Source of the DNA: an uncultured Calditrichaceae bacterium
GTDB taxonomy: Bacteria > Calditrichota > Calditrichia > RBG-13-44-9 > J075
Length of the DNA: 64,000 bases
NCBI GenBank assembly: GCA_964522165.1
Contig: CAZFVV010000001.1
Coordinates: 23,394 to 87,393 of the forward strand
Direction: 5' to 3'
Position 1 is the stretch's first letter; the number at the start of each line of letters is the position of its first letter. Shown here one piece after another: positions 2,333 through 35,669 of the stretch. The notes below the pieces were generated by a model, which did not search any database, was not told where the DNA came from, and saw only the letters and a program-made list of their open reading frames with translations. The position numbers were made by a program, and so were the translations under genes.

Positions 2333-4420
2333 ATGCAATTCCTTCGCTTTATCTCATTTTTATTGGGTTTAATGCTGTTGATTGGTTGGAGTAATATATT
2401 GAAAGGCAATTGGGGAAAAGGAAATCATAGTAATCAGTATGTTGATATAGATCCGAGTTCTTGTTCAGTTTTATTTAAAGATGGGAGAGTTCATATAATA
2501 GAGAACAGATTATCTAACTCTCTGCATAAATCCGTTCATAATTCGACCAACGCTTTTACCATTGACTTATTCCCGTTGAAAATCATGTCTGATTTTATAA
2601 TGAGTTATCTCTGGTTTTATGATGAATTAGGAAACGGGAACGATACCCTCATCTTTTTGGAAGATTCAGTAGCAAGTGTATTACGGCCTGCTGGCCGGTA
2701 CAGTCTCTTTGCGGGATATTGGCCTGATCAATATCAACACACCCTCATCGTAAAAGATCATATTCATTTAAGTGCCCCATCACAAGTTCAGATAACGGAA
2801 GAAGAAGCGGATCAGGCGCTGAATTTCAATTTACGTAAAGAGACTGGTAACCCTTTGGGAATTAGTGTTATCTCGTTTTATTTTTACAGCAAAATGAATG
2901 ATTCTAAGTTCAGGATTACCAGCTTCAATGATGGTTATAATACTTTTAGGTTAAAATACAATTTTATGCCTCAGTCATTTGAAAAAGAATGGGCAGTTAA
3001 GGGTAAACAACTCCATAATGGAGGGAATTTATACTTGTTAAGTGGTGAAATAACGGATGACCTACCGCCGACTACTAATATTACTAACAACCCGGCTAAT
3101 TTAGTTCATGCCGATTTTTATTATCATTTTCCAGATTCCCTAACCAATGGAAGCTATTTTCAAATATCCACTTTATTTCCTGATTTCCATTGGGCGGGAG
3201 CCGGCGATCCAATTTACACCCATCCGATTCAGTTAAGAGTATACCAGGATACTACTCTTAGTATTGCATTTCGAGCTTCTACGTTCATTCAATTTGTCTC
3301 AAGTAATGCCCTTTTTTACATTACAACTCATGAAGTTCGAATTGATAATCAAATGGTTACAGGATATTTCCTTTCCGATAGAAATGCTAGTTCATTCATT
3401 ATTTCAAATAAATTGGAAAAAACAAATTTGGGGTTGACACCGACTTACTGGTTTGGAAAATTTATGAATCAAGCAGACACTATTAAGATTCGTTCACCTC
3501 ACGGGAAATTTCAACATCTTTTTCTATCTCAGAGTAACGATATACTACTGCATTACAACGTAGATTTCCAAATTTTTAGTAATGGAGTAATCATTAAGGA
3601 AGGGAAGTTTCCCTATGCTGCTGGGAGTCCTATTATGTTTCTCGGATTTAATCCAGATAGCCTTACCATCCCGGTTTCACCAGGAACTTACGAGATGGTG
3701 ATCACCGATAACGATTATGAACTCAACGCACAGCCAGGCATTTCCCGCGTCAAAGCGAGATTTAATCTTAATCAATTAGATAGAAACCCGCCCAACATAA
3801 CACTTTTCCAAATTCTGGCTGAAGATGAATTAACTTATGCTTTGAATCCTTTCAATAACAATAGAGTGCGATTTACTTTGGAAGAAGAGGGAGTCGTAAA
3901 TGGCATTCAACTATTCTATGGAGCATGGAATGATAGCATTTGGCATGAAATCCCTCTCAACCATAATGCACCCTTTTGGGATGGTTCAATTCCTTATTTA
4001 AGCGAGGGTTTATATTCGTTAAGATTACTCGCCTGTGATGGTTTTCAAAATTATATTGATTGTATAATGTCGCCTGCATTTGTGATGGAAGAGAGCACCG
4101 CTATAAAGAATAATTCTCTTGGGATAAATTCTTTACAACAAATTCAGCTTTATCCGAATTATCCTAATCCTTTTAATGAACAGACATTAATCTCTTACGT
4201 AATTCCCAATAACTTTTCCAGTGAAATACAAATTGCTATTTACAACCTGCTTGGGCAAAAAGTGGCGATTTTATATGAAGGAAGGACAACGTCGGGGCAT
4301 CATCAACTTTATTGGAACGGAACAGACAGTGATGATAAGCAAACTGCGTCAGGTATTTATTATTTAGTATTGAAAGGAGGTGATCTAATCATTAAACAAA
4401 AATTGATAGTGATTCATTGA
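2333..4420 (+). CDS. Secreted hypothetical protein with a T9SS (Por) C-terminal sorting domain
   Basis: RBS AGGAGA 8 nt upstream and an N-terminal signal peptide. C-terminus reads YPNYPNPFNEQTLISY...IYNLLGQKVAIL...SGIYYLVLK, typical of a T9SS CTD. The gene is clearly AT-rich relative to its flanks. Confidence 0.8.
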   Translation: MQFLRFISFLLGLMLLIGWSNILKGNWGKGNHSNQYVDIDPSSCSVLFKDGRVHIIENRLSNSLHKSVHNSTNAFTIDLFPLKIMSDFIMSYLWFYDELGNGNDTLIFLEDSVASVLRPAGRYSLFAGYWPDQYQHTLIVKDHIHLSAPSQVQITEEEADQALNFNLRKETGNPLGISVISFYFYSKMNDSKFRITSFNDGYNTFRLKYNFMPQSFEKEWAVKGKQLHNGGNLYLLSGEITDDLPPTTNITNNPANLVHADFYYHFPDSLTNGSYFQISTLFPDFHWAGAGDPIYTHPIQLRVYQDTTLSIAFRASTFIQFVSSNALFYITTHEVRIDNQMVTGYFLSDRNASSFIISNKLEKTNLGLTPTYWFGKFMNQADTIKIRSPHGKFQHLFLSQSNDILLHYNVDFQIFSNGVIIKEGKFPYAAGSPIMFLGFNPDSLTIPVSPGTYEMVITDNDYELNAQPGISRVKARFNLNQLDRNPPNITLFQILAEDELTYALNPFNNNRVRFTLEEEGVVNGIQLFYGAWNDSIWHEIPLNHNAPFWDGSIPYLSEGLYSLRLLACDGFQNYIDCIMSPAFVMEESTAIKNNSLGINSLQQIQLYPNYPNPFNEQTLISYVIPNNFSSEIQIAIYNLLGQKVAILYEGRTTSGHHQLYWNGTDSDDKQTASGIYYLVLKGGDLIIKQKLIVIH

Positions 4421-4514: not shown

Positions 4515-4811
4515 ATGAATTCAAGAGAGATTACAATGAAAACTTTGTATTTTCAACTGATGGCTCTATTATGCATCTACCTTTCAGGTTACGCTCAAGG
4601 CACCATTACATCTGTGGTTCATCATGGCCCTTATAATGACTTTGATGCTGTAGTGGTTGATCTTACTCAAACGCAAATTATAATTTTTTTATCTATGTTT
4701 TTTATCGACCCCAAAAATGGGAGTCAGGGCAATGGAATGACTTATATGCGTGGGATTATTTTGGGCCTTTTTATACAGCGGGTTCCTGGAGTGTGGTCAA
4801 TAAACCAATAA
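4515..4811 (+). CDS. 5' fragment of a T9SS cargo gene carrying the signal peptide (MKTLYFQLMALLCIYLSGYAQG); likely the same gene as 4793-5611 after a frameshift
   Basis: Signal-peptide ORF in frame 0. Frame 2 opens at 4661 and continues into the next ORF. A T7 homopolymer lies at 4684-4690. Confidence 0.45.
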   Translation: MNSREITMKTLYFQLMALLCIYLSGYAQGTITSVVHHGPYNDFDAVVVDLTQTQIIIFLSMFFIDPKNGSQGNGMTYMRGIILGLFIQRVPGVWSINQ

Positions 4812-5611
4812 ACATCTTTCGGGGTGAAGATTATTCGGGAAATTTTGCTCCATTGTACATTAACCCTGCCGGAAATGGAACATATCGAATTCAGGTTGCT
4901 CTGTATGTAGATTTTGAGCCCGATATCACTGAATATTCCGGTTCGTTTACCGTGACCGATGTAGTCGCCCCTTCTGCTCCAACTGGCATCACTAGATCTA
5001 TTGTGGGTTCGCAGAACAATCCCCGTATTGACTGGAATCAGAACCCTGAAGGAGATATTCAAAACTATGAAATCTATAAAAGAGTGGGCAGTGATCCCTG
5101 GGGAACTTCTCCAATCGCTACTGTAAGTAACACTACAAAATATTACGTGGATCAGACAGTGACAGGGGCCAGTTTTTACCAATATAGCAATAATGTGGAG
5201 ATTCCCTACCGGGTAAAAGCAGTTGATTTTAACGCCAATAAATCGGCTCATTCCAGTTCAGTTAGTTTTAATGTGCAGGGCGGGGATCAGAGCAAAATTG
5301 TGGGTCCGAATCTGGTTGAACAAGTCATTCCGGACAATTATGTCCTAATGCAAAACTACCCAAATCCTTTTAACCCGGTTACAACCATTCAATTCGGGCT
5401 GAAAGAAGCCGGGCCGGCAGAAGTAGCGATCTATTCCATAGACGGGCGGAAAATCGCAACCCTGGTGAATGAATTCATGGAAGCGGGGACGTATCAAGTG
5501 CATTGGGATGGGACGGATCAACAAGGCAACCCGGCCAGCTCTGGCGTGTACCTCTATCAACTAAAAGCAGGGAATCAAAGGCTGGTGAAGAAGATGATGC
5601 TCGTCAGATAA
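4793..5611 (+). CDS. T9SS C-terminal-domain protein (3' part, or a separate ORF with a GTG start)
   Basis: C-terminus YPNPFNPVTTIQFGL...VAIYSIDGRKIATL...SGVYLYQLKAGN is a canonical T9SS CTD. The reading frame is open upstream back to 4661. Confidence 0.75.
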   Translation: MVNKPINIFRGEDYSGNFAPLYINPAGNGTYRIQVALYVDFEPDITEYSGSFTVTDVVAPSAPTGITRSIVGSQNNPRIDWNQNPEGDIQNYEIYKRVGSDPWGTSPIATVSNTTKYYVDQTVTGASFYQYSNNVEIPYRVKAVDFNANKSAHSSSVSFNVQGGDQSKIVGPNLVEQVIPDNYVLMQNYPNPFNPVTTIQFGLKEAGPAEVAIYSIDGRKIATLVNEFMEAGTYQVHWDGTDQQGNPASSGVYLYQLKAGNQRLVKKMMLVR

Positions 5612-6055: not shown

Positions 6056-8833
6056 ATGGCTAAGAAGTACGTCTATTATTTCGGTTCCAACGGCGCAGAT
6101 GGCCGCGCAGACATGAAAGAATTGTTGGGAGGCAAGGGCGCCAACCTGGCGGAGATGGTTAACTTAGGTATGCCGGTGCCTTCCGGTTTTACCATTTCTA
6201 CCGAAGTGTGTACTTACTACTACAAAAACAACCGCACCTACCCCAAGGAGCTTTCCGGCCAGGTGCTGCAAGCGCTGCGGAAAATGGAAAAAGAGATGGG
6301 CGCCAAATTCGGCGACAAAAACAATCCCCTGCTGATATCGGTTCGTTCCGGGGCGCGCAGCTCCATGCCCGGGATGATGGAAACGGTTCTGAACGTGGGA
6401 TTGAACGATACCACCCGCGAGGGATTGATCAAAAAGTCCAAAAATCCCCGCTTCGTGTACGATTCCCAGCGCCGCCTGATCCAGATGTATTCCGACGTGG
6501 TGATGGAAAAGGCCGCCGGCGTCGAGCCGAAAGAGGGCAAAGGTATTCGCCAGCAGTTGGAACACGAGTTGGAAAAGATGAAACACGCCAAAGGCTGCAA
6601 AAGCGACACGGACCTGACCGCCGATGATTTGCAAGAATTGATCGAAATTTACAAGCGGAAAGTGCGGGAAGTGCTCGGCAAACCCTTCCCGGAAGACGCC
6701 CTGGAGCAGTTATGGGGCGGGATCGGGGCGGTTTTCCAAAGTTGGAACGGCAAACGCGCCGTGGCCTACCGGCGGATCGAGGGCATCCCGGATTGGTGGG
6801 GCACCGCGGTCAACGTGCAGGCCATGGTGTTCGGAAACATGGGCGACTCCTCAGCCACCGGGGTGGGATTTACCCGCAACCCGGCCACCGGCGAGAACTA
6901 TTTCTACGGCGAATGGCTGCCCAACGCCCAGGGCGAAGACGTTGTCGCCGGCATTCGCACCCCCAACCCGGTCAACGAGGTGGGAAAATCCGAGCATACC
7001 CACCACCTGCCCTCCCTGGAAACCGCCATGCCCAAAGCGTATAAACAACTTCACCGGATTCAGAAGCAGTTGGAAAAGCATTACAAGGATATGCTCGACA
7101 TCGAATTCACCATCCAGGACGGCACGCTGTACATGCTGCAGTGCCGGGTGGGGAAACGGAACGGCCCCGCGGCGCTGAAAATGGCGTTGGACATGATGCA
7201 CGAAAAACTGATCGACGCAAAAACCGCGGTTGCCCGGGTGAAGCCGGAGCAATTGGATGAATTACTGCACCCGATTTTAGACCCCAAGGCGGAAAAAGCG
7301 GCTACCTCCATCGCCAAAGGTTTGCCTGCCGGCCCCGGCGGCGGAACCGGCAGGGTGGTGTTCAGCGCTAATGAGGCCGTGGAATGGGCTAAAAAAGGCG
7401 AAAAGGTCATTTTGGTGCGCGAAGAGACCAACCCGGAAGACATCGAAGGGATGCGCGCGGCGCAAGCCATCCTCACCGCCCGCGGGGGGATGACCAGCCA
7501 CGCCGCGCTGGTGGCGCGCGGCTGGGGAAAATGCTGCATCGTCGGCGCGAGCAGCATCAAGGTAAATTTCAAAGAGAAATATTTGATGGCCGGGGAGCAT
7601 AAGGTTAAAGAAGGCGACTGGATTTCCCTGAACGGCAGCAAGGGCGTGGTCTATCTCGGCCAGCTGGGCATGGTGAAGACCACCGAGGACAACCCCCTGT
7701 TCCAGGAGTTGATGAAACTGTGCGATAAATTCCGTCGCCTGAAAGTTCGCACCAACGCCGATACCCCGGAAGACGCCCGGAAGGCGCGGGCCTTCGGGGC
7801 GGAAGGAATCGGGCTGTTCAGAACCGAGCACATGTTCTACGGCAAAGGCTCCGAAGCTCCCTTGTTCAAGCTTCGCAAAATGATCATCTCCAAGACCGAA
7901 GCCGAACGCCGGGCGGCGTTGGAGGAGTTGTTTTCCCACGTGAAGAGCGACATCAAAGGCACCCTGGAAGCGATGGACGGCTTCCCGGTGACCATCCGCA
8001 CCCTGGATCCGCCTTTGCATGAATTTGTGCCCAATCACCACGAAGAGCAGGAAAAGCTCGCCAAAAGCCTCAATATCAGCCTGGAAGAATTCGAGAAACG
8101 CGCCAATGCGCTGCATGAAAACAACCCCATGATGGGGCATCGCGGGGTGCGGCTGGGCGTGACCTACCCGGAAGTGACCGAGATGCAAATCCGGGCGATC
8201 TTCGAGGCCACTGCGGAATTGCTGCAAAAAGGAAAAAAACCTTATCCCGAAATCATGATTCCGGTTACCTGCACCAGCGCTGAATTGAAGCACCAGTTCG
8301 ATCTGATTGCCCAGGTACACCAGGAGGTATGCGCGAAGTTCAAGATGAAAGCGATTCCCCACCTGGTGGGAACCATGATCGAAATTCCCCGCGCGGCGCT
8401 GACCGCGGATAAAATGGCCGAATATGCGCAGTTCTTCTCGTTCGGAACGAATGATTTGACCCAAATGACCTTCGGCTTCTCGCGGGACGACATCGGCGGG
8501 TTTTTACCCGATTACCTGGAGAAGCGCATCCTGCCGGGGGACCCGTTCCAACAGGTTGATCGCGATGCGGTGGGCGAGCTGATGAAGGTCGCCTGCGAAA
8601 AAGGGCGCAGCGCCCGGCCGGATATTAAACTGGGCATCTGCGGGGAGCACGGCGGCGACCCGGCTTCCGTGGAGTTTTGCCACCAATTAGGATTGTCGTA
8701 TGTCAGTTGCTCCCCCTTCCGGGTGCCGATTGCCCGGCTGGCCGCGGCGCAGGCGGCGCTGCGCGACTCCGCGCCGGCGCCCAAAAAGCAGAAAAAGGGG
8801 GCAGCGAGAGCCAGCCGGAGTGCAAAACTTTAG
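6056..8833 (+). CDS. ppdK: Pyruvate, phosphate dikinase
   Basis: 925 aa. RBS AGGAGA upstream. N-terminal KYVYYFGSNGADG...GGKGANLAEM, a central phosphohistidine region and the PEP-utilising C-terminal domain. Ends in a Lys/Arg-rich tail. Confidence 0.93.
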   Translation: MAKKYVYYFGSNGADGRADMKELLGGKGANLAEMVNLGMPVPSGFTISTEVCTYYYKNNRTYPKELSGQVLQALRKMEKEMGAKFGDKNNPLLISVRSGARSSMPGMMETVLNVGLNDTTREGLIKKSKNPRFVYDSQRRLIQMYSDVVMEKAAGVEPKEGKGIRQQLEHELEKMKHAKGCKSDTDLTADDLQELIEIYKRKVREVLGKPFPEDALEQLWGGIGAVFQSWNGKRAVAYRRIEGIPDWWGTAVNVQAMVFGNMGDSSATGVGFTRNPATGENYFYGEWLPNAQGEDVVAGIRTPNPVNEVGKSEHTHHLPSLETAMPKAYKQLHRIQKQLEKHYKDMLDIEFTIQDGTLYMLQCRVGKRNGPAALKMALDMMHEKLIDAKTAVARVKPEQLDELLHPILDPKAEKAATSIAKGLPAGPGGGTGRVVFSANEAVEWAKKGEKVILVREETNPEDIEGMRAAQAILTARGGMTSHAALVARGWGKCCIVGASSIKVNFKEKYLMAGEHKVKEGDWISLNGSKGVVYLGQLGMVKTTEDNPLFQELMKLCDKFRRLKVRTNADTPEDARKARAFGAEGIGLFRTEHMFYGKGSEAPLFKLRKMIISKTEAERRAALEELFSHVKSDIKGTLEAMDGFPVTIRTLDPPLHEFVPNHHEEQEKLAKSLNISLEEFEKRANALHENNPMMGHRGVRLGVTYPEVTEMQIRAIFEATAELLQKGKKPYPEIMIPVTCTSAELKHQFDLIAQVHQEVCAKFKMKAIPHLVGTMIEIPRAALTADKMAEYAQFFSFGTNDLTQMTFGFSRDDIGGFLPDYLEKRILPGDPFQQVDRDAVGELMKVACEKGRSARPDIKLGICGEHGGDPASVEFCHQLGLSYVSCSPFRVPIARLAAAQAALRDSAPAPKKQKKGAARASRSAKL

Positions 8834-8885
8834 TTTTGCCACTCACGTTGCCTGCCGACAGTGCAAAGCTGAAGCTTTGCACTCC
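8815..8885. repeat. Palindromic intergenic repeat GAGTGCAAAACTTTAGTTTTGCCACTC plus AGTGCAAAGCTGAAGCTTTGCACTCC
   Basis: Two imperfect palindromes of the TGCAAAAC-NNN-GTTTTGCA family sit immediately after the ppdK stop. Confidence 0.6.
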
Positions 8886-9038
8886 GGCGTACTTCATTTT
8901 CGGTTAGCGGTTCGTTGATCTTTATCAATTCAATTGCCGGTGATGGGAATAACTTGCGTGGCCGGTTTTTCTGTCGCCAGCACCGATTAAACCAGGGAAG
9001 TTATCGGCACTTTTCATCAATCTAACAAGGAGAGCAAG

Positions 9039-9494
9039 ATGGCGAAGAAGAAGGAACGTCAATTTGCCATTAAGCAGATCGTTCAAGAGGAACAGATTTC
9101 GAACCAATCCGAACTGCTATCCAGGCTGCAAGGCAAAGGTTACAACACCACCCAGGCCACATTGTCGCGGGACCTCCACGAGATGGGAATCATCCGGGTT
9201 CCAACCCCGGAGGGATACCGCTATGTTATTTCCGAGCAGGAGAGCAGCCACTCGTTTGTGAAGTTAGTGGGAATGGAAATTTTAGGAATTTACAATAACG
9301 AATCGGTTCTGGTGGTCAGAACCATCACCGGGCGAGCGACCGGGGTGGCCCTGTTTATCGATCAGATCAAACACCGCAACATCCTCGGCACCGTCGCGGG
9401 AGAAAATTCGATTATTGTAGTTCCGGATTCCGTGGCCAACCTGCCCAAGATTAAAACCGATCTGGAGAACATCGCCTGTCAGAAATGGAGCTAA
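9039..9494 (+). CDS. argR: Arginine repressor ArgR
   Basis: 151 aa. RBS AAGGAGAG upstream. The TQATLSRDL DNA-binding motif and the C-terminal oligomerisation domain with GTVAGENSIIVV are present. Confidence 0.85.
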   Translation: MAKKKERQFAIKQIVQEEQISNQSELLSRLQGKGYNTTQATLSRDLHEMGIIRVPTPEGYRYVISEQESSHSFVKLVGMEILGIYNNESVLVVRTITGRATGVALFIDQIKHRNILGTVAGENSIIVVPDSVANLPKIKTDLENIACQKWS

Positions 9495-12121
9495 AGGCCA
9501 GGATCGATACGGAATTCTTGCCCTTTGTCAGCAAGCCTGCGCGATACCTGGGAAACGAGTATAACGCCGTTCTGAAATCCCCCCGGCCGGGGGAACTGCG
9601 CGTGGCCCTGTGTTTTTCCGATTTGTACGAAGCGGGAATTCGCAATACTGCATTTGAGACGTTATACCACTGTTTGAACAGCCAGCCGAAAATTTCCGCG
9701 GAACGGGTTTATACTCCCTGGACCGACGCGGAAACGGTTCTGCACGCTGCCGCTATCCCACTGTTTTCGCTGGAATCCAAATTCCCCCTGAACAAGTTTG
9801 ATCTGCTCGTTTTCTACCTCCCGGATGTATTATCATTTACCAACCTCTTAACCATGTTGCATCTCGGCGGCGTTCCGCTTCGCTCCCGGGAGCGGAACGC
9901 CGGGGAACCGCCGGTGATTGGCGTCGGCCCCGCGCTCATCAATCCCGAACCGCCGGCTGTTTTCCTGGATGCGGCCGTTCCCGGGGACCCCGTAGCCGCC
10001 CTGTGGGAAATTGCCGCGGCGGCGGAACGCGCAAAGAGCGAGCGCCGAGACAGGCAGGAGTTCCTCCGGGCTATCGCGGCAATCCCCGGGGTGTATGTTC
10101 CTTCATTTTATGAGCCGTTGTATAACGATTTTAAGGAATTCCAGGGAATTACCCGCTTAGAGACTACCGCGCCGGAGCGTATCCGCAGCGCTGCCGCCGG
10201 GTCCGGCGCTAAGGATGAAAAAATCTGCCCGCTGAAACCGCTGCAGCCCCCGGGAGATTTGCCCAACAATCGCCCCGCGGCCGGCCAGTACGAACGCTTT
10301 ACGGGGGAAAATAACCGTTTCGCTCCCGGGCGGGTATTTCCCCCGGCGGTGCAGCAATCCGCGGAAAATTTGTACCGGGAATTGCAAAAATGCTTGCAGG
10401 GAAGCGGCGCGGAGCCGGCGGCGCGGTTATTATCCAATGATTCGCTTTTCCGGGAAACCGGTTGGGGATTCGCCAAGGAGAAATGCCTTGCAGAAGAGCA
10501 CCTGATAAGCGTCTCCGTTCCTTCTGCGGAATTAGCGCTGCGCCTGCCGGCAACCGGGGAGCTGGCCAACGCGCTGAAGGAGAATGGGTTCGCCCTCTCG
10601 CCCCTGGCTGGCAGCCCGCGCCTGCGCAGCGTGTTGAACCTGAACCTGCGCGACCAGGATATTTTAGACGCGGTCAAATTGGCGCTGGAGAGCGGCTGGC
10701 AAACCATCCGGCTGAATTTTATGCTCGGCCTGCCCGCCGAAAAGCCGGAAGATGCCGAGGCCATCGCCGCCCTGGCCAAAAAATGCCTGGATCTCGCCAA
10801 ATCCTATCCGGAAGCGCAGCTGCTGGTCTCGGCGCAGGGGTTTTCGCCGAAAGCTCATACGCCTTTCCAGTGGGAAAAACAGGAATCCGCGGCGCTGCTG
10901 GAAGAGAAATTCGAGCAGCTCCGGCAAAGCTTAGCCGACCTCCCGGTAAAAACCGTTTTTCAAAATCCCCGCCTGGCCAGCTTAGAAACCGCCCTCTCCC
11001 GGGGCGACCGCAGGATGGGCGAGGTGATCGAGAGCGCCTGGCAGCGGGGAGCGCGCCTCGACGCCTACAAGGAAACTTTTCGCGGGGAGGCCTGGGAGCG
11101 GGCGTTCCGGGAAAAGGAGATCGACTGGGAGGCCTGCCTCTCGCCCATCTCCGTTACCGTGGCGCTGCCCTGGGACCACATCGACCTGGGCGTCTCCAAA
11201 GCGGATCTCAAAGAAGAAAAGTTGCGGGCTTACCAGGGGCAGTTGCACCCCCGGAACAAGGATATGGTTTCGTTAGGCTACGGGGGATTGCCGCGAACGG
11301 AGTTCGAGGCGCTGCTGTGGAGCAATCTACCGGCGGAGCGGGGAAATAGCGCGGGGACGGTTTCCCGGCCCCGGCTCGAGGCGATGGCTGATTCGCAGGG
11401 GGAGGCCATCCAGTACGGCCGCCGGGAACGCAAGCGCCAGGCCCCAGTGCAGGTGATCAAGCGAAAAATCCGCATCCGCTATTCCAAATCCGGCCCGGCG
11501 CGGTTCCTTTCGCACCTGGACATCGTGCGGGTGTTCGACTTTTCCGCGCGGCTGGCGAAAATTCCCTTAGTATATTCACAAGGACTGCGCCCGAATCCCA
11601 AAATTTCGTACGCGCTTCCCCTAAGCCCCGGGGTCGCTTCCACTGCGGAGTACCTGGATATGGAAGTGGAAATCGGGCGGGAGACCGATATCCAGGGGCG
11701 TTTCAACCGGTTTTTGCCCGGCGGCATCCAGATTCTGCAATACCAGGGCATTTTCGCCAAAGTGCCGGCCCTGGCCGCGGTGATCAACCGCTCCACTTAT
11801 GAAACGCTGCTAACGGATTTCAGCCTGCCGGAAGAATGGGTTGCGGAGTGGCTGGCCCAACCGGAAGCGCCGGTTCGCCGGGAGACCAAGGAGGGGATGA
11901 AGGAGGTCGATATTCGCCCCTACGTACGCCAAATGAAGCGCACGCAGAGCAATTTAAATGTAACGATTGACATCATCGAAGGAAGAACTGCTAAAATAAC
12001 CGAAGTATTGGAATCGCTGCTTTCCCCCCGAGGGATCGAGTATCGAAAATTCCAGGTTCAGCGAACGGGACAATATATCGTCGAGAACGATTCGATTTTA
12101 ACACCTTTTGATATTATTTAG
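9485..12121 (+). CDS. Fusion protein: TIGR03960-like radical-SAM-family protein (N-terminal B12-binding-like domain) joined to a DUF2344/TIGR03936 'radical SAM-linked' domain. The canonical CX3CX2C motif is not detectable.
   Basis: N-terminus FVSKPARYLGNEYN...LRVALCFSDLYEAG matches TIGR03960. The C-terminal RIRYSKSGPARFLSHLDIVRVFDFSARLAKIPLVYSQGLRPNPKISYALPLSPGV matches DUF2344. The start overlaps the argR stop by 10 nt. Confidence 0.75.
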   Translation: MELKARIDTEFLPFVSKPARYLGNEYNAVLKSPRPGELRVALCFSDLYEAGIRNTAFETLYHCLNSQPKISAERVYTPWTDAETVLHAAAIPLFSLESKFPLNKFDLLVFYLPDVLSFTNLLTMLHLGGVPLRSRERNAGEPPVIGVGPALINPEPPAVFLDAAVPGDPVAALWEIAAAAERAKSERRDRQEFLRAIAAIPGVYVPSFYEPLYNDFKEFQGITRLETTAPERIRSAAAGSGAKDEKICPLKPLQPPGDLPNNRPAAGQYERFTGENNRFAPGRVFPPAVQQSAENLYRELQKCLQGSGAEPAARLLSNDSLFRETGWGFAKEKCLAEEHLISVSVPSAELALRLPATGELANALKENGFALSPLAGSPRLRSVLNLNLRDQDILDAVKLALESGWQTIRLNFMLGLPAEKPEDAEAIAALAKKCLDLAKSYPEAQLLVSAQGFSPKAHTPFQWEKQESAALLEEKFEQLRQSLADLPVKTVFQNPRLASLETALSRGDRRMGEVIESAWQRGARLDAYKETFRGEAWERAFREKEIDWEACLSPISVTVALPWDHIDLGVSKADLKEEKLRAYQGQLHPRNKDMVSLGYGGLPRTEFEALLWSNLPAERGNSAGTVSRPRLEAMADSQGEAIQYGRRERKRQAPVQVIKRKIRIRYSKSGPARFLSHLDIVRVFDFSARLAKIPLVYSQGLRPNPKISYALPLSPGVASTAEYLDMEVEIGRETDIQGRFNRFLPGGIQILQYQGIFAKVPALAAVINRSTYETLLTDFSLPEEWVAEWLAQPEAPVRRETKEGMKEVDIRPYVRQMKRTQSNLNVTIDIIEGRTAKITEVLESLLSPRGIEYRKFQVQRTGQYIVENDSILTPFDII

Positions 12122-12196
12122 TGTTCGAGTGTTATAGTGTTCTGGTGTTATAGTGCTTTAGTTTCTTCGCACTAAAACACTAAAACACCTGAACAC
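12121..12196. repeat. Long imperfect palindrome made of 8-nt periodic units: GTGTTCGA GTGTTATA GTGTTCTG ... AACACTAAAACACCTGAACAC
   Basis: Tandem GTGTTNNN units are mirrored by NNNAACAC units. Related copies lie at 13797-14052, 19648-19745, 35513-35595 and 62625-62660. Confidence 0.6.
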
Positions 12197-12261
12197 TTTT
12201 CCCCCGTTCTGTACCGTGATACAGCGACATCCGACGCCGCGGTTACCGCAATGAGGATACC

Positions 12262-13794
12262 ATGGCTATACGAAAAGAAATTGTTATCAATTCGACCAAT
12301 GAAGATACACGAATTGCGCTCCTGGAGGACGGGAAGTTAGTGGAGTTGTTTGTAGAACGCCCGGATAACGAACGCATGGTGGGGGACATTTATAAAGGGC
12401 GGGTAAGGAAAGTAGTGAAAGGAATGCAGGCGGCTTTTATAGATATCGGTTTTCAGCAGGACGGATTTCTGCACTTCTCGGACATGGGGAGTAACGTTAA
12501 CCAGCTCTTTGCCGATATCGAGGAAGAGGAAACCGAGGGAGGCGGCAAATCCCGCCCCGACATGGAACCTTCGGAGCTGCTGCGCAACGGGCAGGAAGTT
12601 TCCGTTCAAATCATCAAAGAACCGATCAGCAGCAAGGGTCCCCGGGTCACCACGGAATTGACCCTGCCGGGGCGCTTTTTGGTGCTGGTACCTAACCAGC
12701 ACCGGGTGGGGGTTTCCCGCAAGATCAGCACCAGCCAGGAACGGCGGCGGTTGCGCCAACTGGTGCGCAAAATGCTGCCGAAGAATTTCGGGTTGATCGT
12801 GCGCACCGTGGCGGAGGGAAAATCCGATGACGTGCTCAAGCAGGATTTGAACAGGCTGCTGAAAGAGTGGCAGGTCATCGAAGAAAAAATGCGCACCGCC
12901 AAACCGCCCATGCTGCTGTTCAAGGACTTAGGAATGGCCTCCAGCGTTATCCGCGACCTGTTTACCAGCGACGTTAAACGGGTGGTGGTAGATTCCCGGA
13001 AAATGCACCGCGAGATTACCCGCTACCTCAAGGAAGCCGGTTCGGAACTGCTGGAGCGGGTGGAATATTTCAAATCCAGGCGCCCGATTTTCGACGTCTT
13101 CAACGTCGAAGAAGAAATTCAAAAGAGCTTGCAGAAAAAAGTGTGGATGAAAAACGGCGGGTACGTCATTATCGAGCATACCGAGGCGCTTACCGTGGTG
13201 GACGTAAACAGCGGGCGGTATTTCGGAAGGAAAGACCACGAGAAGAATTCCCTGAAGATCAACCTGGAGGCGGCGCGGGAGATAGCCCGGCAATTGCGCC
13301 TGCGTGACGTCGGGGGATTGATCGTCATCGATTTCATCGACATGGAAGAAGAGGGAAACAAGCGCCGGTTATTTATGGAACTATTGAAAGAATTCAGCCG
13401 CGACCGCGCCGCCAGCAACATCCAGGAATTGAGCAAATTCAGCATCGTGGAAATGACCCGGGAGCGCATCCGCCCCAGCCTGATCTACAATATTACCGAG
13501 CCTTGCGCGGTGTGCGAAGGCACCGGGCTGGTGCCGACCCGGGGAACCGTGCTGGCGCACATCGAGCGCGCCCTTCGCCGCTACGTGGCTACCCGTTTGG
13601 ACCGGCGGGTGATTCTGCAAGTTCACCCGAGCATGGCGGAGTTCCTGAACAACAAGCCCTTCGGGCGGCGCTTCCGCTTGATGTGGAAATACTGGGTAAA
13701 GATCATTTTAGAACAAGATACAACCCTGGCGCCGCACCAGTTCCGGCTGCTGGTGAAGCGCAACCGCGAAGACGTGACCGGGAAATTCTCATAA
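12262..13794 (+). CDS. rng: Ribonuclease G (RNase E/G family)
   Basis: 510 aa. The S1 domain with GDIYKGRV...AAFIDIG, a DNase-I-like catalytic core and a C-terminal Zn-link CAVCEGTG are present. Confidence 0.88.
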   Translation: MAIRKEIVINSTNEDTRIALLEDGKLVELFVERPDNERMVGDIYKGRVRKVVKGMQAAFIDIGFQQDGFLHFSDMGSNVNQLFADIEEEETEGGGKSRPDMEPSELLRNGQEVSVQIIKEPISSKGPRVTTELTLPGRFLVLVPNQHRVGVSRKISTSQERRRLRQLVRKMLPKNFGLIVRTVAEGKSDDVLKQDLNRLLKEWQVIEEKMRTAKPPMLLFKDLGMASSVIRDLFTSDVKRVVVDSRKMHREITRYLKEAGSELLERVEYFKSRRPIFDVFNVEEEIQKSLQKKVWMKNGGYVIIEHTEALTVVDVNSGRYFGRKDHEKNSLKINLEAAREIARQLRLRDVGGLIVIDFIDMEEEGNKRRLFMELLKEFSRDRAASNIQELSKFSIVEMTRERIRPSLIYNITEPCAVCEGTGLVPTRGTVLAHIERALRRYVATRLDRRVILQVHPSMAEFLNNKPFGRRFRLMWKYWVKIILEQDTTLAPHQFRLLVKRNREDVTGKFS

Positions 13795-13796
13795 AA

Positions 13797-14052
13797 CTGT
13801 GTTCGGGTGTCATGGTGTTCGGGCGTTATAGTGTTCGAGTGTTTTAGTTTCGGGTTTTACGTTTTAAGTTTTGGTTCTCTATCATAATTTTACGTGAATT
13901 AAGGGTTGAAATATCTGATTGGATTCGGAGGGGACAGGGGGGAGGTCATAAACCGATTTTACGATAAGTTCTATACCGTGCTTCCAACCCTTAATTGGCA
14001 TTAAAACACCAAAACACTTGAACACTAAAACACTAAAACACCATAGCACCGC
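13797..14052. repeat. Nested composite repeat: a GTGTTNNN-type left arm (13797-13860), an inner element bounded by GAATTAAGGGTTG...CAACCCTTAATTGG (13888-14000) containing GGGGACAGGGGGGAGGTCATAA, and an NNNAACAC right arm (14000-14052)
   Basis: Read directly from the sequence. The inner element recurs at 62650-62800 attached to only a left arm. Confidence 0.6.
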
Positions 14053-14092
14053 AACACTTTTTATCAACCTTTTATCGAAGGAGATTTTTTTA

Positions 14093-15253
14093 ATGGATTA
14101 CTATCGTTTCGGAAGAGTGTTAGTGCCGGAAGGCGGCATATTCGATGATATTCAGAGCGCGCTCCAGTTTGCCGACCGGGTGGAGGCGGAGCCGCTTGCG
14201 GAGCAAATTCAGCAGCTGAGCTTCACCACCGACGAAGAGGGGCTTCTCACCGTGCTGATCAACAACAAACGCTATTTCATTACCCTCTCGGCCCTGAAGG
14301 AGTTGTGCAAACTGTTGAAAGTTCCGGCCAGTTACATCAACAAGTTCCCGGGGCGGAGCCTGGTGCTGGAAAATTTGAATAATAATCCCTATCTGAAAGA
14401 GAACGCCGATCCCATCAAACTGGTGATCTGGAACCATGAAGAGCAGCCGGTCATTGCCGGGGTGCTGCCGGGGAACGACCCGGGCATGTCATTGAAAGCG
14501 TATTTCGAGCTGCTGCACGATGAGAAAGTGTTCGAGCGGGAGAGCACCCAGCTCGACCAGATCGTCATCACCGGGGAAGAAGCGGCGCTCTACTTTTATT
14601 TGACCGATGAGATCACCCGGGAGGGTTTCGGGTTCAACCTCGGCTACGCTTTCCACTATTCGCCTACCCTCTCCGCGGATTTTGTGGTGCAGCCGTTTTG
14701 CAAAATGTCCGTGGTGGCGCCCAGTGGGGAGCCGTTCGATTTCGATTTCGAGAGCACGAAGAAACTGCACGCGGCCAAACGCAAAAAAGAGGATTTTTTG
14801 CAGAAAACCCTGGAGCTGAGCCAGACCTACCAGGGGCAGGACCTGGGCATGTACGCAGAAGAAGTGCTCAAATTCGGCACCGTGTCGCGCAACCTCGACA
14901 CCGTTAAATACGCCCTGCTGAAATATTTCAAATCCCGCGCCCTTTCCATCTACAATTACGGCGGGGTAAAGGTGGACGGCAACGAGGTGGCCCAGGAAGT
15001 GATCCCGGAGTACAAACAGTTCTACAGCGCCAACCAGGAGGACCTCAAGCAGATGGAAACCTACGCGGCCAACAACTTGCCGGTAAGTTTCTACCTGCCG
15101 GTCTATTTGAACCGCATTTTCACCTTCCAGGCCAATATCGAAAACCCCAATTTTCTGATTCGCTACCGCAAAGCCATCGGGGCGACCCTGAACAAGGTTT
15201 TAGATGAAGTGGGAGACGTGATGGTGGACGTGGAGAGAGACGAGGATAAATAA
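14093..15253 (+). CDS. Hypothetical protein (386 aa). The start is taken at MDYYRFGR with an AAGGAG RBS; the upstream ATG at 14018 lies inside the repeat.
   Basis: Long ORF with a good RBS (GAAGGAGATTTTTTTAATG). No recognisable motif. Confidence 0.65.
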   Translation: MDYYRFGRVLVPEGGIFDDIQSALQFADRVEAEPLAEQIQQLSFTTDEEGLLTVLINNKRYFITLSALKELCKLLKVPASYINKFPGRSLVLENLNNNPYLKENADPIKLVIWNHEEQPVIAGVLPGNDPGMSLKAYFELLHDEKVFERESTQLDQIVITGEEAALYFYLTDEITREGFGFNLGYAFHYSPTLSADFVVQPFCKMSVVAPSGEPFDFDFESTKKLHAAKRKKEDFLQKTLELSQTYQGQDLGMYAEEVLKFGTVSRNLDTVKYALLKYFKSRALSIYNYGGVKVDGNEVAQEVIPEYKQFYSANQEDLKQMETYAANNLPVSFYLPVYLNRIFTFQANIENPNFLIRYRKAIGATLNKVLDEVGDVMVDVERDEDK

Positions 15254-15933: not shown

Positions 15934-17010
15934 TCACTCCTCTTCCTCTTCTTCCCCCGCCTCGCCGGTTAACTCCGCATATTCTTCCCGGCACTCTTCG
16001 ATGCGCTCCAATACCGGCTCCGCCGCTTCCAGATATCCCATTTCCCTTGCAAACGTGAAAAAACCGGCGAAGGAATCCGGCAGGATCGCCTCGCCTTCCG
16101 GACGGTGCTCTACCTTGCGGAGGTAGTAATCTAACAGGTATTCCTCCACATGGTCGGCGGTGCAGTTCAACAGGGTGGCGCGGTGGGATTCTTTCAAGAA
16201 GGGATCGAGAAAAGGCTGTAAATTGCCCCGGTGCGCGGCAATCTCTTCCTCCGGCAGTTGGAGATATTCCAGGTAGCGCCGGAAGAGGTCTAACACCCGG
16301 TTTTGGAAATCCAGCGCTTTGGGCAGCACCGGGTTATCCGGGGCGATGAAGTCGATCTGCGAATAGTTGGCTTTCAAATAATCCTGCAACGCCGCCAGGT
16401 TCGCCTGTTCTTCCGGGCTGAGCAGGGAGCGCGCTGCTTCCGGATCCGGGGCGGGGATGGCGGTTGCGGCGCCGATTTCCCACTCCTGCGGAAATTCTCC
16501 TTCCGGCAAAAAGGTTGCAAGCTCCATGGCCGCCTTGAATTCCTCCGCGGTATAGCGGCTGCGCTCTTCCGGGTCGTGGGCCATGGGAAAAACCTGAATA
16601 TGGCGCTTGAGCAGCAACTCCGCCAACTCCTCGAAATCTTGTTCCGCGCGGGCCAGTTGGGAATAGGCTTCCCGCACCGGCAGCAGCAGGGATGCCCGCT
16701 TTTGCAGGTCCTTTTCGGAAAAGGCTTTATGGAAGCCCTGAACCACGAACGCGGTTCGCTCGGCCTGGGAGACGTCATTGGGGTCGCCGGCTAAAAACAG
16801 CGGCTGGGCAAAATCAAAAATTTTCTGCATTTGTCCCTGCATGGCCGGGGGAATACTGCCGGGCAGCCCTCCCGGCATACCGGGCATTCCCGGGAATTGC
16901 GGGGCTGCTTGCTTTGGCCGGAGTTTGCGCCACTCCTTTTTCTCGCTGCGCCGTTTCAGCGATTTGGCCTGGCGGCGTTTCTGGCTCTGCTTTTTGTTCT
17001 TCTTGCCCAT
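15934..17010 (-). CDS. Hypothetical protein with a Lys/Arg-rich N-terminus, a PGMPGMPGG repeat and a poly-Glu C-terminus
   Basis: 358 aa ORF with coding-like composition. No family recognised. Confidence 0.6.
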   Translation of the reverse strand: MGKKNKKQSQKRRQAKSLKRRSEKKEWRKLRPKQAAPQFPGMPGMPGGLPGSIPPAMQGQMQKIFDFAQPLFLAGDPNDVSQAERTAFVVQGFHKAFSEKDLQKRASLLLPVREAYSQLARAEQDFEELAELLLKRHIQVFPMAHDPEERSRYTAEEFKAAMELATFLPEGEFPQEWEIGAATAIPAPDPEAARSLLSPEEQANLAALQDYLKANYSQIDFIAPDNPVLPKALDFQNRVLDLFRRYLEYLQLPEEEIAAHRGNLQPFLDPFLKESHRATLLNCTADHVEEYLLDYYLRKVEHRPEGEAILPDSFAGFFTFAREMGYLEAAEPVLERIEECREEYAELTGEAGEEEEEE

Positions 17011-18717: not shown

Positions 18718-19644
18718 TCAATACCCCATTCGCCGGAGCAGGCCCTCTTTGCGCCGCCAGTCCTCCGCCACTTTTACGAACAGTTCCAGGAAGACCGGCC
18801 GCCCCAAAAAGGTTTCGATCTCCTGGCGCGCCAGCGAACCCACTTTTTTCAACGCCTGGCCCTTCCTGCCGATCAGGATGCCCTTTTGGGAGGGCTTTTC
18901 CACCAGGATCAGCGCCCGGATGTAGTCTTTGCCCCCTTCCGGTTCCTCCGGCGAAGCGTCGGCTTCCCGGAATTCCTCGATCTCCACGTGGCAGGAATAG
19001 GGAATCTCCTCCCCGTAGAGCCTGAAAATTTTCTCCCGTACGATCTCCGCCACAAAAAAGCGCTCCTGCTGGTCGCTGATATAATCGCTGGGATAGAAGG
19101 GGTGGCCGGCCGGCAGGTATTTGGCAATTTCTTCAAGAAGCCGGCCTAAACCGTCGCTCTTCTCTGCGGAGATGGGAATGATAGCCTTGAAGGGGTGAAT
19201 TTTGGAGTACTGCTCAATGAGCGGCAAAAGCTGCCGTTTTTCGAGCAGGTCGATCTTGTTCAGCGCCAGGATTACTGCTTTGTTCTGGGTTAGCGCCATT
19301 TGCTTTTGCACTTCCTGCGGCGCTTGCCGCCGCTCCGCGACGTCCACCATGTACACTAACACATCCGCATCCGCTATAGCGGATTTAACGCTTTTGAGCA
19401 TCTTCTCCTGCAAAGTATAGCGCGGCTCCAGGATTCCCGGGGTGTCGATGAACACCATCTGGTAATGCGGAGCGTTGAGAATGCCCAGTACGTTTTTCCG
19501 GGTGGTTTGCGGCTTGGGGGTAACGATGGAAATCTTGAAATGCAGCAACCGGTTCAACAAAGTCGATTTGCCCACGTTGGGCAGGCCCACCACGGCAATG
19601 TAACCGGCGCGAAAATTTTCAACAGGGTTCATGGTTCTCAACAA
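18718..19644 (-). CDS. era: GTPase Era
   Basis: G1 motif GLPNVGKSTL, G3 DTPG, G4 NKID and a C-terminal KH domain are present. Confidence 0.88.
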   Translation of the reverse strand: MLRTMNPVENFRAGYIAVVGLPNVGKSTLLNRLLHFKISIVTPKPQTTRKNVLGILNAPHYQMVFIDTPGILEPRYTLQEKMLKSVKSAIADADVLVYMVDVAERRQAPQEVQKQMALTQNKAVILALNKIDLLEKRQLLPLIEQYSKIHPFKAIIPISAEKSDGLGRLLEEIAKYLPAGHPFYPSDYISDQQERFFVAEIVREKIFRLYGEEIPYSCHVEIEEFREADASPEEPEGGKDYIRALILVEKPSQKGILIGRKGQALKKVGSLARQEIETFLGRPVFLELFVKVAEDWRRKEGLLRRMGY

Positions 19645-19647
19645 TTT

Positions 19648-19745
19648 GCGTGTTCATGTGTTCGAGTGTTATAGTGTTCTTGTGTTTTAGTATTTGGGTA
19701 GGATTCGCAGGTGCTAAAACACTAAAACACTTGAACACCATCGCA
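19648..19745. repeat. GTGTTNNN/NNNAACAC 8-nt periodic palindrome
   Basis: GTGTTCATGTGTTCGAGTGTTATAGTGTTCTTGTGTTTTAG...CTAAAACACTAAAACACTTGAACAC. Confidence 0.6.
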
Positions 19746-35512: not shown

Positions 35513-35595
35513 AGTGTTATGGTGTTTTGGTGTTATAGTGTTTGGGTAATTGAACATCTGTACACCGGAACACCATCGCACTAAAATATTACATC
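35513..35595. repeat. GTGTTNNN/NNNAACAC periodic palindrome
   Basis: GTGTTATGGTGTTTTGGTGTTATAGTGTTTGG ... ACACCGGAACACCATCGCAC. Confidence 0.55.
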
Positions 35596-35669
35596 ACTAT
35601 AACCCGAATTTTCTTCAAAACGTCACATAAGCCATAACGGTATTCTACACAAACAGCGAGGTTCGGATC

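Follow-up and report, generated by a model that had tools for sequence, protein, structure and literature searches.

The gene at 9485..12121 of the window, by which we mean the whole stretch of 64,000 nucleotides analysed, encodes a TIGR03960-like protein fused to DUF2344 in which all three cysteines of the [4Fe-4S]/SAM loop have been substituted, together with the four cysteines of a second metal-binding motif. It is probably a cluster-less, pseudo-radical-SAM orthologue that now does without radical chemistry, and a role linked to RNA and RNase G is the likeliest for it. An earlier note on this DNA had reported the loss of the first motif; the loss of the second, a collapse of constraint in the half-barrel only, and the phylum-wide adjacency to argR are new.

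The locus and the domains of the protein

The features discussed below are the following, all on the + strand.

9039..9494, +: argR, arginine repressor, 151 aa (Arg_repressor and Arg_repressor_C matches)
9485..9494, +: overlap of argR and the fusion gene, 10 nt, ATGGAGCTAA, from argR stop to fusion-gene start
9485..12121, +: fusion gene (cluster-less TIGR03960-like / TIGR03936 (DUF2344)), ATG start, 878 aa
9653..10102, +: Radical_SAM_N2, Rossmann-like (B12-binding-like) N-terminal domain, residues 57-206 (PF19864, E 4e-42)
10160..10840, +: degenerate radical-SAM half-barrel, residues 226-452 (partial PF04055; distal part 373-452 recognisable, proximal part 263-372 almost unconstrained in sequence)
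10292..10330, +: remnant of the CX3CX2C loop, ERFTGENNRFAPG, residues 270-282 (in-frame alignment; three Cys positions substituted)
10841..11284, +: C-terminal part of the TIGR03960 region (family motifs FSPKAHTPFQWE at 453-464, RGDRR at 505-509 and LPWDH at 561-565 kept)
11255..11323, +: lost second Cys motif, residues 591-613 (Cys positions 591/596/599/613; column comparison with canonical sequences)
11414..11440, +: basic motif YGRRERKRQ, within the otherwise disordered inter-domain linker 616-656 (pLDDT <50)
11465..12118, +: DUF2344 / TIGR03936 domain, residues 661-878 (PF10105, E 3e-43, match 661-834; TruA/Pus1-type pseudouridine-synthase fold predicted)
12120..12197, +: long imperfect hairpin of 8-nt GTGTTNNN repeat units, then UUUUCCCCC, between the fusion gene and rng
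12262..13794, +: rng (RNase G/E family), 510 aa (RNase_E_G match), 140 nt downstream of the fusion gene

The gene order is the one given in the earlier note, with a 10-nt overlap with argR and rng next. Both domains of ArgR were found in Pfam (PF01316, Arg_repressor, E 3e-22; PF02863, Arg_repressor_C, E 1e-13), and its NCBIfam score against TIGR01529, 126.5 bits, is marginally below the cut-off of 130.45. Rng matched PF10150 (RNase_E_G, E 4e-101) and S1 (E 2e-7) in Pfam and passed the NCBIfam cut-off for TIGR00757 (499.9 bits, cut-off 325.95). The argR ATG is preceded by an AGGAG 8 nt upstream, and that of rng by a GAGGA 5 nt upstream. The fusion-gene start has no well-spaced Shine-Dalgarno site, the nearest GGAG being 17 nt upstream; this, together with the 10-nt overlap, suggests that its translation is probably coupled to that of argR. 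Between the fusion gene and rng, the predicted folding of 12115-12262 has an energy of -46 kcal/mol (z = -4.6), and the GTGTTNNN repeat family counts 23 matches for 0.32 expected. No genuine Rfam match was obtained for this hairpin region.

Profile searches bore out the three domains recognised in the earlier note. The N-terminal B12-binding-like domain is the PF19864 match listed above; PF02310 was not detected in the fusion protein by the Pfam search. The distal half of the radical-SAM part is likewise recognisable, but PF04055 matched residues 292-430 only (profile positions 29-165 of 166), with 21.4 bits for a gathering threshold of 29.5, and the part of the profile that covers the Cys loop was left unmatched. 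Alignment to the NCBIfam profile TIGR03960 runs from end to end (residues 11-591 to positions 3-588 of 605), yet its score, 383 bits, falls below the cut-off of 462.3. The C-terminal domain passed both of its thresholds (PF10105, 148.4 bits for 23.8; TIGR03936, 158.4 bits for 71.9), and it is fused to a TIGR03960-like region, as TIGR03936 membership requires.

Loss of both cysteine motifs in one Calditrichota clade

The hallmark of the radical SAM superfamily is a set of three cysteines (CX3CX2C or a variant) that ligate the SAM-binding [4Fe-4S] cluster. In the fusion protein, cysteines stand at positions 43, 63, 248, 303, 334, 434 and 551. The pattern C-x(2-7)-C-x2-C is absent from every + frame across 9000-12500, and its single match in this interval lies on the minus strand, in a frame that stop codons interrupt, and is due to chance. 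With the sub-threshold PF04055 and TIGR03960 alignments, this confirms that CX3CX2C is missing, as the earlier note had claimed. The note also had the loop replaced by a Pro/Gly-rich segment. Residues 245-295 do contain 9 Pro and 4 Gly out of 51 (25%, versus 13% for the protein), but this is not the most Pro/Gly-rich stretch, and the word "replaced" has to be given up: the loop aligns in frame (ERFTGENNRFAPGRVFPP in the window protein versus MRGCTEGCRFCNAGMIYRP in canonical ones), with R, E and RF kept and F/T, N and F/A in the three former Cys columns. By this alignment, the cluster loop is one that decayed in frame by substitution, and not a foreign replacement.

The second motif, whose loss the earlier note overlooked, reads DC[KR]xxxCxGCG...x14...C in canonical sequences versus NKDMVSLGYGG...LLWS in the window protein. 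Its columns hold Cys in 64-82% of canonical and 0-5% of degenerate sequences, N591 and S596 being fixed in 86% of the degenerate lineages. At the three columns of the first loop, canonical proteins have a Cys fraction of 1.00, which falls to 0-0.05 in the degenerate clade.

The loss is a property of a whole clade. The triad is absent in 16 of 120 homologues, all belonging to one clade, and CX3CX2C is present in the other 104 (104/104). At 50% identity, the cluster-less proteins recovered in an exhaustive search reduce to about 14 representatives, all named members being Calditrichota, and in the tree the cluster-less protein nests inside this phylum beside canonical members. Support for the degenerate clade is 99% in the protein's own tree; monophyly of the same lineages with the Rng marker reached only 54%. 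The order argR-X-rng is common to canonical and degenerate Calditrichota genes, so that the two are to be regarded as orthologues; judged by sequence and gene order, the TIGR03960-TIGR03936 fusion has its syntenic orthologue in the window gene. The -10 nt argR overlap is identical in all degenerate-clade loci (L005, L006, L007, L017, L018), and canonical genes of one sub-clade (L008, L014, L032) have a -4 nt ATGA overlap with argR. The argR coupling, called unusual in the earlier note, is indeed lineage-specific, but adjacency to argR extends over the Calditrichota, motif-bearing canonical orthologues included, and we conclude that it is unrelated to the loss of the motif.

An indel around 10100-10500, resulting from a sequencing or assembly error, could have hidden a canonical CX3CX2C by frameshift. 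The region is GC-rich (about 0.57-0.64), and its other frames contain long, overlapping ORFs that are spurious, as such an explanation would have it. However, the motif appears in none of the + frames, and an identical 878-aa protein is present in one JGI metagenome and three Logan runs, which are independent assemblies from different samples. Moreover, relatives ranging from 91% to 36% identity are without exception devoid of CX3CX2C, the remnant loop keeps its R, E and RF in frame, and the second Cys motif, some 320 residues downstream, is gone too. The artefact can be considered as refuted for practical purposes.

Constraint and predicted fold

Among the 162 columns that are invariant in canonical proteins, 96 are kept in the degenerate clade and 37 are lost, the latter clustering at 241-322 and 370-411. 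The losses include S316, L317, D321, Y322, E374, K409 and Y411, family-invariant in canonical proteins and placed in beta2-beta4 and part of beta5. The canonical-invariant residues 52-56, 109, 114-115 and 147 of the N-domain are gone as well, and GLPxE (415-419) is kept. In the core 263-372, pairwise identity is 0.18-0.22 (0.19) within the degenerate clade versus 0.70-0.83 (0.72) among canonical Calditrichota, and conserved columns number 5/110 versus 66/110. For DUF2344, identity is the same within both clades (0.57), with Rng more divergent in the degenerate lineages (identity 0.68 versus 0.80), and the invariant polar residues R663, K668, H677, D679, R682, S719, E722 and D725 are kept. Retention at the FSPKAHTPFQWE, RGDRR and LPWDH columns is at least 80% in the degenerate clade, with a pLDDT of about 90 or higher. 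In the linker, Y644, G645 and R646 are invariant in the two Calditrichota alignments (A2 and A4), and the YGR motif is also found in most of the other canonical sequences aligned. The collapse of constraint is confined to the catalytic half-barrel, DUF2344 being no less conserved than in canonical relatives.

These figures also bear on whether the whole gene is drifting as a decaying pseudogene. A half-barrel down to about 19% identity is what decay would produce, and part of it is deleted in one representative, P0128. Against this, the full-length ORF is intact across the degenerate clade (about 855-910 aa) although its Rng proteins are only about 68% identical. The dN/dS ratio is 0.21 for the whole gene and 0.09 for DUF2344 (0.22 for the degenerate core, on small counts of 13 non-synonymous and 18 synonymous changes). 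The degenerate proteins conserve DUF2344 and many family motifs just as well as canonical ones do, and the 10-nt argR overlap has been maintained. The fusion gene is under purifying selection, and a pseudogene is extremely improbable.

The AF2 model of the whole protein (mean pLDDT 86.8, pTM 0.88) shows alternating beta/alpha elements across 246-452, which were also predicted from degenerate-clade sequences only. A partial (beta/alpha)6 TIM-barrel fold is thus predicted to be retained, in answer to a check suggested in the earlier note. The best Foldseek matches are radical-SAM enzymes, MgmA, TokK, CysS and AprD4 (E 7e-7 to 2e-3), still retrieved with the degenerate-only model; those with MgmA, TokK and CysS extend across the N-terminal Rossmann-like domain. 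The class B (cobalamin-dependent) enzymes MgmA (9ccb), TokK (7kdx) and CysS (9n1b), as well as AprD4 (6fd2), a B12-domain radical-SAM enzyme, all resemble the N-domain and half-barrel of the window protein. Identity to these four is only 11-13%, and the window protein has no cluster cysteines, so that the resemblance is one of fold only. The former Cys loop is of low confidence (pLDDT <50 at 264-267 with AF2, and at 254-277 in the degenerate-only model).

With such a barrel, radical-SAM activity might persist through an unconventional cluster, held by non-canonical ligands of the Dph2/ThiC type, at an inter-subunit site, or supplied by a partner. C43 and C434 are newly conserved, each in 95% of the degenerate clade (11% and 29% in canonical proteins), and they are its only conserved cysteines: the degenerate-clade alignment contains no alternative set of conserved Cys beyond them. 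Two cysteines cannot ligate the cluster, since the site requires three ligands; the surroundings of the former site retain 5 conserved columns out of 110, disorder is predicted for the former loop, and E374, K409, Y411, S316, D321 and Y322, among others, are gone from strands that bind SAM in radical-SAM enzymes. An active enzyme of this kind is very unlikely, and the complete non-canonical motif that could have overturned the earlier note was not found. The fusion protein would rather be catalytically dead. Loss throughout a deep clade, purifying selection and a predicted fold that is kept all side with the earlier suggestion of a pseudo-enzyme, dead or repurposed, and speak against an artefact.

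A possible role without radical chemistry

Pseudoenzymes commonly regulate active paralogues, and the dead copy might accordingly form a heteromer with an active TIGR03960 paralogue encoded elsewhere, or titrate its substrates. Yet it occupies the orthologous argR-X-rng slot and not a duplicate locus. There is no paralogue of the fusion gene within the 64-kb window, and no second locus from degenerate-clade assemblies (including the complete 6.28-Mb chromosome OZ245730.1) was present among the best 80 loci listed, to about 30% identity, by a genome scan which, being pattern-based, argues weakly. A regulatory partner of this sort seems quite unlikely.

DUF2344 itself is placed in the Pfam pseudouridine-synthase clan (PMC7955657). 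Its Foldseek matches are PUS3, TruA and Pus1 (E 3e-6 to 1e-4, TM about 0.5 on target), and a profile search of PDB sequences reached only Pus1, weakly, and elsewhere than the expected GRTD place. The protein might then remain an enzyme through this domain, as a pseudouridine synthase or with another RNA-directed activity, the radical-SAM part having become unnecessary, perhaps upon a move to habitats richer in oxygen. In favour of this are the complete TruA-type fold predicted, the invariant polar residues kept, and a constraint at least equal to that of canonical relatives. On the other hand, at about 12-15% identity to TruA, Pus1 and Pus3, the consensus YSQGFxPxPK lacks a conserved Asp at the place of the catalytic GRTD of TruA, a judgement made at the sequence level; our literature searches on TIGR03960/DUF2344 proteins found nothing on function or on a DUF2344 activity, and the habitat argument, by which a cluster sensitive to oxygen would be a handicap under more oxic conditions, is speculation. 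Such an enzyme is unlikely, and DUF2344 probably serves to recognise RNA, not to make pseudouridine.

The preferred explanation remains a pseudo-radical-SAM protein with an RNA-linked role. With both Cys motifs lost and selection still acting, the protein probably has a non-catalytic role adjoining RNase G. The ancestor of one Calditrichota sub-clade would have lost radical-SAM chemistry in the TIGR03960-TIGR03936 fusion protein, which would persist through functions that it already held and that are independent of this chemistry. Fold and gene neighbourhood suggest that the retained function is the binding or presentation of RNA by the pseudouridine-synthase-like DUF2344 and the basic linker. 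In rRNA/tRNA processing, the protein would act together with RNase G or at a step before it, the dead half-barrel being kept as a structural spacer. TruB and KsgA/Dim1 are RNA-modification enzymes whose chaperone or assembly role needs no catalysis, and the proposed role may be likened to theirs; they are catalytically competent in nature, whereas the degenerate clade has lost its catalytic apparatus throughout.

The parent family is widespread, the TIGR03960/DUF2344 pair forming 3,377 clusters at 50% identity with E <= 1e-30, from many phyla. It often stands upstream of rng or rne: of 54 loci from outside the Calditrichota, 30 have rng downstream in the same orientation, and over half of the loci examined have RNase G/E next to the pair. 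The window protein shares with the family its three-part architecture, full-length alignment and position before rng, and keeps FSPKxHTPFQWE, RGDRR, LPWDH and the DUF2344 invariants; it is devoid of the RGCxxGCRFC loop, the downstream SLLSLSxxDY and FAPEAGS, and the C-terminal four-Cys motif. Canonical Calditrichota orthologues (e.g. P0014-P0017, L008-L015, L032), 41-48% identical to it and with the same synteny, keep both Cys motifs, whereas the degenerate clade lost both.

The impact of these observations is limited, as the parent family has no described function in the literature searched. Transfer of domain names easily labels such proteins "radical SAM" even though, to judge from their residues, they would bind no cluster, and the cluster-less proteins are ready-made negative controls for biochemistry. 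The lineage shows which parts matter without catalysis, namely DUF2344, the basic linker, the C-terminal TIGR03960 motifs and the N-domain scaffold. For the family as a whole, the hypothesis is that these radical-SAM enzymes are directed at RNA and have, in addition, a separable role in RNA handling that is linked to RNase G. We tentatively propose that a second, radical-independent function, most plausibly RNA binding or presentation to RNase G/E via DUF2344, is the main reason why the gene is kept beside rng/rne. If so, the cluster-less clade would be a natural separation-of-function experiment, in which two metal sites and the SAM pocket were discarded and the RNA-handling scaffold was kept.

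Domain matches and the fate of the cysteine loop

The fusion gene lies between argR and rng, in the following arrangement:

9039..9494, + strand: argR, an ORF of 151 aa in which both ArgR domains were matched
9485..12121, + strand: the fusion ORF, 878 aa
12262..13794, + strand: rng, an RNase G/E family ORF of 510 aa, 140 nt past the fusion gene

With Pfam, Radical_SAM_N2 was matched at residues 57-206 (E 4e-42) and DUF2344 at residues 661-834 (E 3e-43). The PF04055 match was partial and below threshold (21.4 bits, for a gathering score of 29.5), pairing residues 292-430 with profile positions 29-165; since it begins at position 29, the Cys-loop part of the profile is left unmatched. Among NCBIfam models, TIGR03960 aligned end to end with 383 bits, under its cut-off of 462.3, and TIGR03936 scored well over its own. 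None of the seven cysteines of the protein (43, 63, 248, 303, 334, 434 and 551) forms CX3CX2C. The window protein lacks the Cys triad and stays below the Pfam gathering score, which are the defining tests for radical SAM, as well as below the TIGR03960 cut-off, and lies above those of TIGR03936 and DUF2344. Together with the frame scan below, these matches bear out the domain layout and the missing triad described in the earlier note. Its term “Pro/Gly-rich” for the stretch is only moderately apt, proline and glycine amounting to 25% against 13% overall.

A six-frame scan of positions 9000-12500 found no C-x(2-7)-C-x2-C in any frame of the + strand, and exactly the same protein is found on contigs from a JGI metagenome and from each of three separate Logan runs. 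Moreover, the loop in the window's sub-clade can be aligned in frame, as ERFTGENNRFAPGRVFPP versus the canonical MRGCTEGCRFCNAGMIYRP. A sequencing or assembly frameshift hiding the canonical motif, which had been proposed for checking, is therefore vanishingly improbable. In the aligned loop R, E and RF are retained and all three cysteine positions are substituted, so that the loop was not “replaced”, as first thought, but has decayed by substitution.

The closest relatives, drawn from a search of 5.8 billion proteins, also lack the E[IV]xRGCxxGCRFCxAG loop in the alignment, as well as the SLLSLSxxDY and GFTFAPEAGS segments, all of which are kept in canonical (triad-bearing) Calditrichota proteins at about 45% identity. 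No precomputed PF04055 match exists for the homologues P0002-P0013 (91-48% identity) and P0018-P0020, and nearly all remoter relatives have one. The triad is missing in 16 of the 120 best homologues, every one a member of the degenerate clade, that is, the Calditrichota relatives without the triad. When 1.84 billion representatives were searched exhaustively with a profile, the family came to 3,377 representatives at E <= 1e-30, among which about 14, clustered at 50% identity, lack the cluster motif (P0007, P0010, P0018, P0121, P0123-P0130, P0138 and P0144). Outside the degenerate clade, the homologue P0157 (845 aa) is canonical, auxiliary Cys motif included, except for a change at its third cluster cysteine (RGCTRGCRFRQAG), explained either by a sequencing error or by a recent inactivation that arose independently.

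Towards the end of their TIGR03960 region, canonical proteins carry a second four-Cys motif, DC[KR]xxxCxGCG followed by another cysteine about 14 residues on (for example in proteins P0014-P0017 and loci L008-L015), which may serve as an auxiliary site for Fe-S or zinc. Of the 120 retrieved homologues, 69 have a similar CxnCxxCG pattern. The motif maps to window residues 591, 596, 599 and 613 (nt 11255-11323), where cysteine is found in 64-82% of canonical sequences and, at any of the four positions, in at most 5% of degenerate-clade proteins. Both metal-type motifs are therefore gone from this clade, the second having been lost together with the triad. The sole cysteines conserved in the clade are C43 (nt 9611-9613) and C434 (nt 10784-10786), at 95%, compared to 11% and 29% in canonical proteins. 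These two are too few to ligate a cluster, which makes unconventional cluster binding by a still active enzyme very unlikely.

Orthology and the number of losses

A scan of GTDB species representatives assigns the window to Calditrichota: it returned the locus of Calditrichaceae MAG_33 (L006, 91% identical), with further Calditrichia and Calditrichota MAGs next. A contig assigned to “Deltaproteobacteria bacterium isolate PRO9” (L005, WYBG01000402.1) encodes a fusion protein 95% and an ArgR 99% identical to those of the window, and is probably mis-binned, mis-assigned or contaminated. Among the best 80 loci of the genome scan, argR is directly upstream and rng downstream in every Calditrichota locus, canonical or degenerate, and no locus outside Calditrichota has an argR neighbour. 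This shared position between argR and rng indicates that the degenerate gene is the syntenic orthologue of the canonical gene, and no spare paralogue. Within the 64-kb window, no canonical paralogue was found by tblastn with three canonical proteins or by a motif scan of ORFs of at least 150 aa; that the protein acts as regulatory partner of such a paralogue is quite improbable.

In neighbour-joining bootstrap trees based on Kimura distance and non-core columns, the degenerate proteins form one clade, sister to canonical Calditrichota, with 99% bootstrap. Synteny and phylogeny together derive the window protein from the TIGR03960-TIGR03936 family. With Rng as an independent marker, an uncorrected neighbour-joining tree suggested that the degenerate clade is paraphyletic, hence that the loss occurred several times, but corrected distances with bootstrap gave 54% for degenerate monophyly against 29% for the alternative, a compatible albeit weak result. 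N591 and S596, derived states that 86% of the degenerate lineages share, likewise favour one loss in a common ancestor, and multiple losses were kept only as a less favoured alternative.

Regional constraint and predicted structure

Mean pairwise identity by region, computed for loci also carrying Rng (degenerate clade versus canonical Calditrichota; the core is the radical-SAM half-barrel)
N-terminal domain, residues 1-225: 0.45 versus 0.65
Core, proximal, residues 263-372: 0.19 versus 0.72
Core, distal, residues 373-440: 0.42 versus 0.71
C-terminal part, residues 441-600: 0.41 versus 0.60
DUF2344, residues 656-878: 0.57 versus 0.57
Rng, divergence proxy: 0.68 versus 0.80

DUF2344 is equally conserved in both groups although Rng divergence is larger among the degenerate lineages. 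In core positions 263-372, columns conserved at 85% or more number 5 of 110 in the degenerate clade versus 66 of 110 in canonical proteins. Judged by residue conservation, the relaxation of constraint is specific to the catalytic half-barrel. Columns near-invariant in canonical proteins were lost in the degenerate clade in 37 cases out of 162, clustered at 241-322 and 370-411, with a few in the N-terminal domain (52-56, 109, 114-115 and 147). Another 96 persist at a level of at least 80%, among them FSPKxHTPFQWE (453-464), RGDRR (505-509), LPWDH (561-565) and the polar invariants of DUF2344. A neo-functionalised core with a new active site was also considered, and rejected because the clade-specific conserved residues, only 13 and mostly conservative changes, form no new motif in the dead core.

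Measured against two close relatives, the whole gene had a dN/dS of 0.21-0.23; the value was about 0.2 in the degenerate core, on small counts, and 0.09-0.18 in DUF2344. Values around 0.2 indicate that the gene is under purifying selection, and a dead pseudogene is therefore extremely unlikely.

AlphaFold2 run on a mixed alignment gave a model with pLDDT 86.8 and pTM 0.88, with low-confidence dips at 238-243, 264-267 (in the one-time Cys loop) and the linker 616-656. The model made from the degenerate clade only had the same beta/alpha elements over 290-452 (pLDDT 71-94), and a pLDDT below 50 in the one-time loop (254-277). In Foldseek searches of the PDB, the N-terminal part matched the B12-radical-SAM enzymes MgmA, TokK, CysS and AprD4. 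Since the degenerate-only model still retrieved the same enzymes first (MgmA, E 7e-7), a partial TIM barrel, whose retention the earlier note had left to structure prediction, is kept as a scaffold in the predicted models.

The C-terminal domain matched PUS3, TruA and Pus1 in the same searches (E 3e-6 to 1e-4), and Pfam places DUF2344 in its pseudouridine-synthase clan (PMC7955657). Read at the sequence level, the DUF2344 consensus YSQGFxPxPK shows no conserved Asp at the position expected from TruA's GRTD. By sequence, the full-length protein had no meaningful match in the PDB, and the DUF2344 profile reached Pus1 alone, with E ~1 and elsewhere in the domain. Because no conserved Asp is apparent and the sequence similarity to Pus1 is weak, we infer that DUF2344 serves to recognise RNA and is not itself an active pseudouridine synthase; that the protein is an enzyme acting through DUF2344 is unlikely.

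Operon context and a probable retained role

The fusion gene overlaps argR by 10 nt (…AAATGGAGCTAA), a layout found in all degenerate-clade loci, even below 50% protein identity. The canonical loci L008, L014 and L032, from one sub-clade, have a 4-nt ATGA overlap with argR, and in the remaining canonical Calditrichota the two genes are 90-568 nt apart. The presence of overlaps in the degenerate clade and in one canonical sub-clade argues that tight argR coupling is old and not tied to cluster loss. Unlike argR and rng, the fusion gene has no well-spaced SD, the nearest GGAG being 17 nt upstream; the arrangement is consistent with its translational coupling to argR. Outside Calditrichota, 30 of the 54 loci whose flank is long enough have rng downstream on the same strand; it comes next in line or, if the two halves are encoded separately, behind the gene for DUF2344.

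A family of intergenic repeats made of 8-nt units (GTGTTNNN) occurs at 12121-12188, 13807-14049, 19658-19738 and 35514-35605, forward units being followed by reverse-complement units to give long imperfect hairpins. GTGTTATAGTGTT was matched 23 times with at most 2 mismatches (0.32 expected), and the copy upstream of rng lies within a stretch folding at z = -4.6. An Rfam scan of 8700-14200 had no match above threshold, only look-alikes of miRNA hairpins at the intergenic hairpins. These repeats may act as terminators or attenuators, or be REP-like elements. Just past rng, the ORFs 14018-15253 (+, 411 aa) and 15934-17010 (-, 358 aa) gave no match in Pfam at E <= 0.001; both are called as genes in the independent JGI contig L001, again with no Pfam match recorded. 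An Era-type GTPase (MMR_HSR1 + KH_2) is encoded at 18718-19644 (-), about 5 kb from rng and on the opposite strand, Era being a 16S rRNA maturation factor. The proteins encoded at 2333-4420 (+) and 4793-5611 (+) carry Por_Secre_tail, the C-terminal sorting domain of type IX secretion, consistent with an FCB-group organism.

The window protein is an orthologue without the cluster, full-length and under selection, whose TruA-fold domain is intact and whose rng operon is conserved. The canonical family would be an RNA-directed radical-SAM enzyme, given that its nearest folds are cobalamin-type radical-SAM methylases, that its recognition domain is RNA-enzyme-like and that it is linked to RNase G/E. 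Radical chemistry may have become dispensable in this Calditrichota branch, where an RNA-binding, presentation or assembly role would have been kept. We consider it likely that a non-radical protein has been retained for a pre-existing non-catalytic function; a specific RNA-handling role linked to RNase G is a more tentative proposal, possible rather than probable. TruB and KsgA/Dim1 are modification enzymes with a catalysis-independent chaperone role, and would parallel such a retained role.

Literature searches on the DUF2344/TIGR03960 family, on radical SAM proteins with RNase E/G and on radical-SAM pseudoenzymes found nothing informative on function. Pseudoenzymes as such are no rarity, and the present case is most aptly classed as a variant, new and cluster-less, of a parent family already known yet uncharacterised. 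Such proteins should not receive the label “radical-SAM enzyme” by domain transfer. The degenerate clade represents a natural separation of function, which makes the family's non-catalytic role testable.
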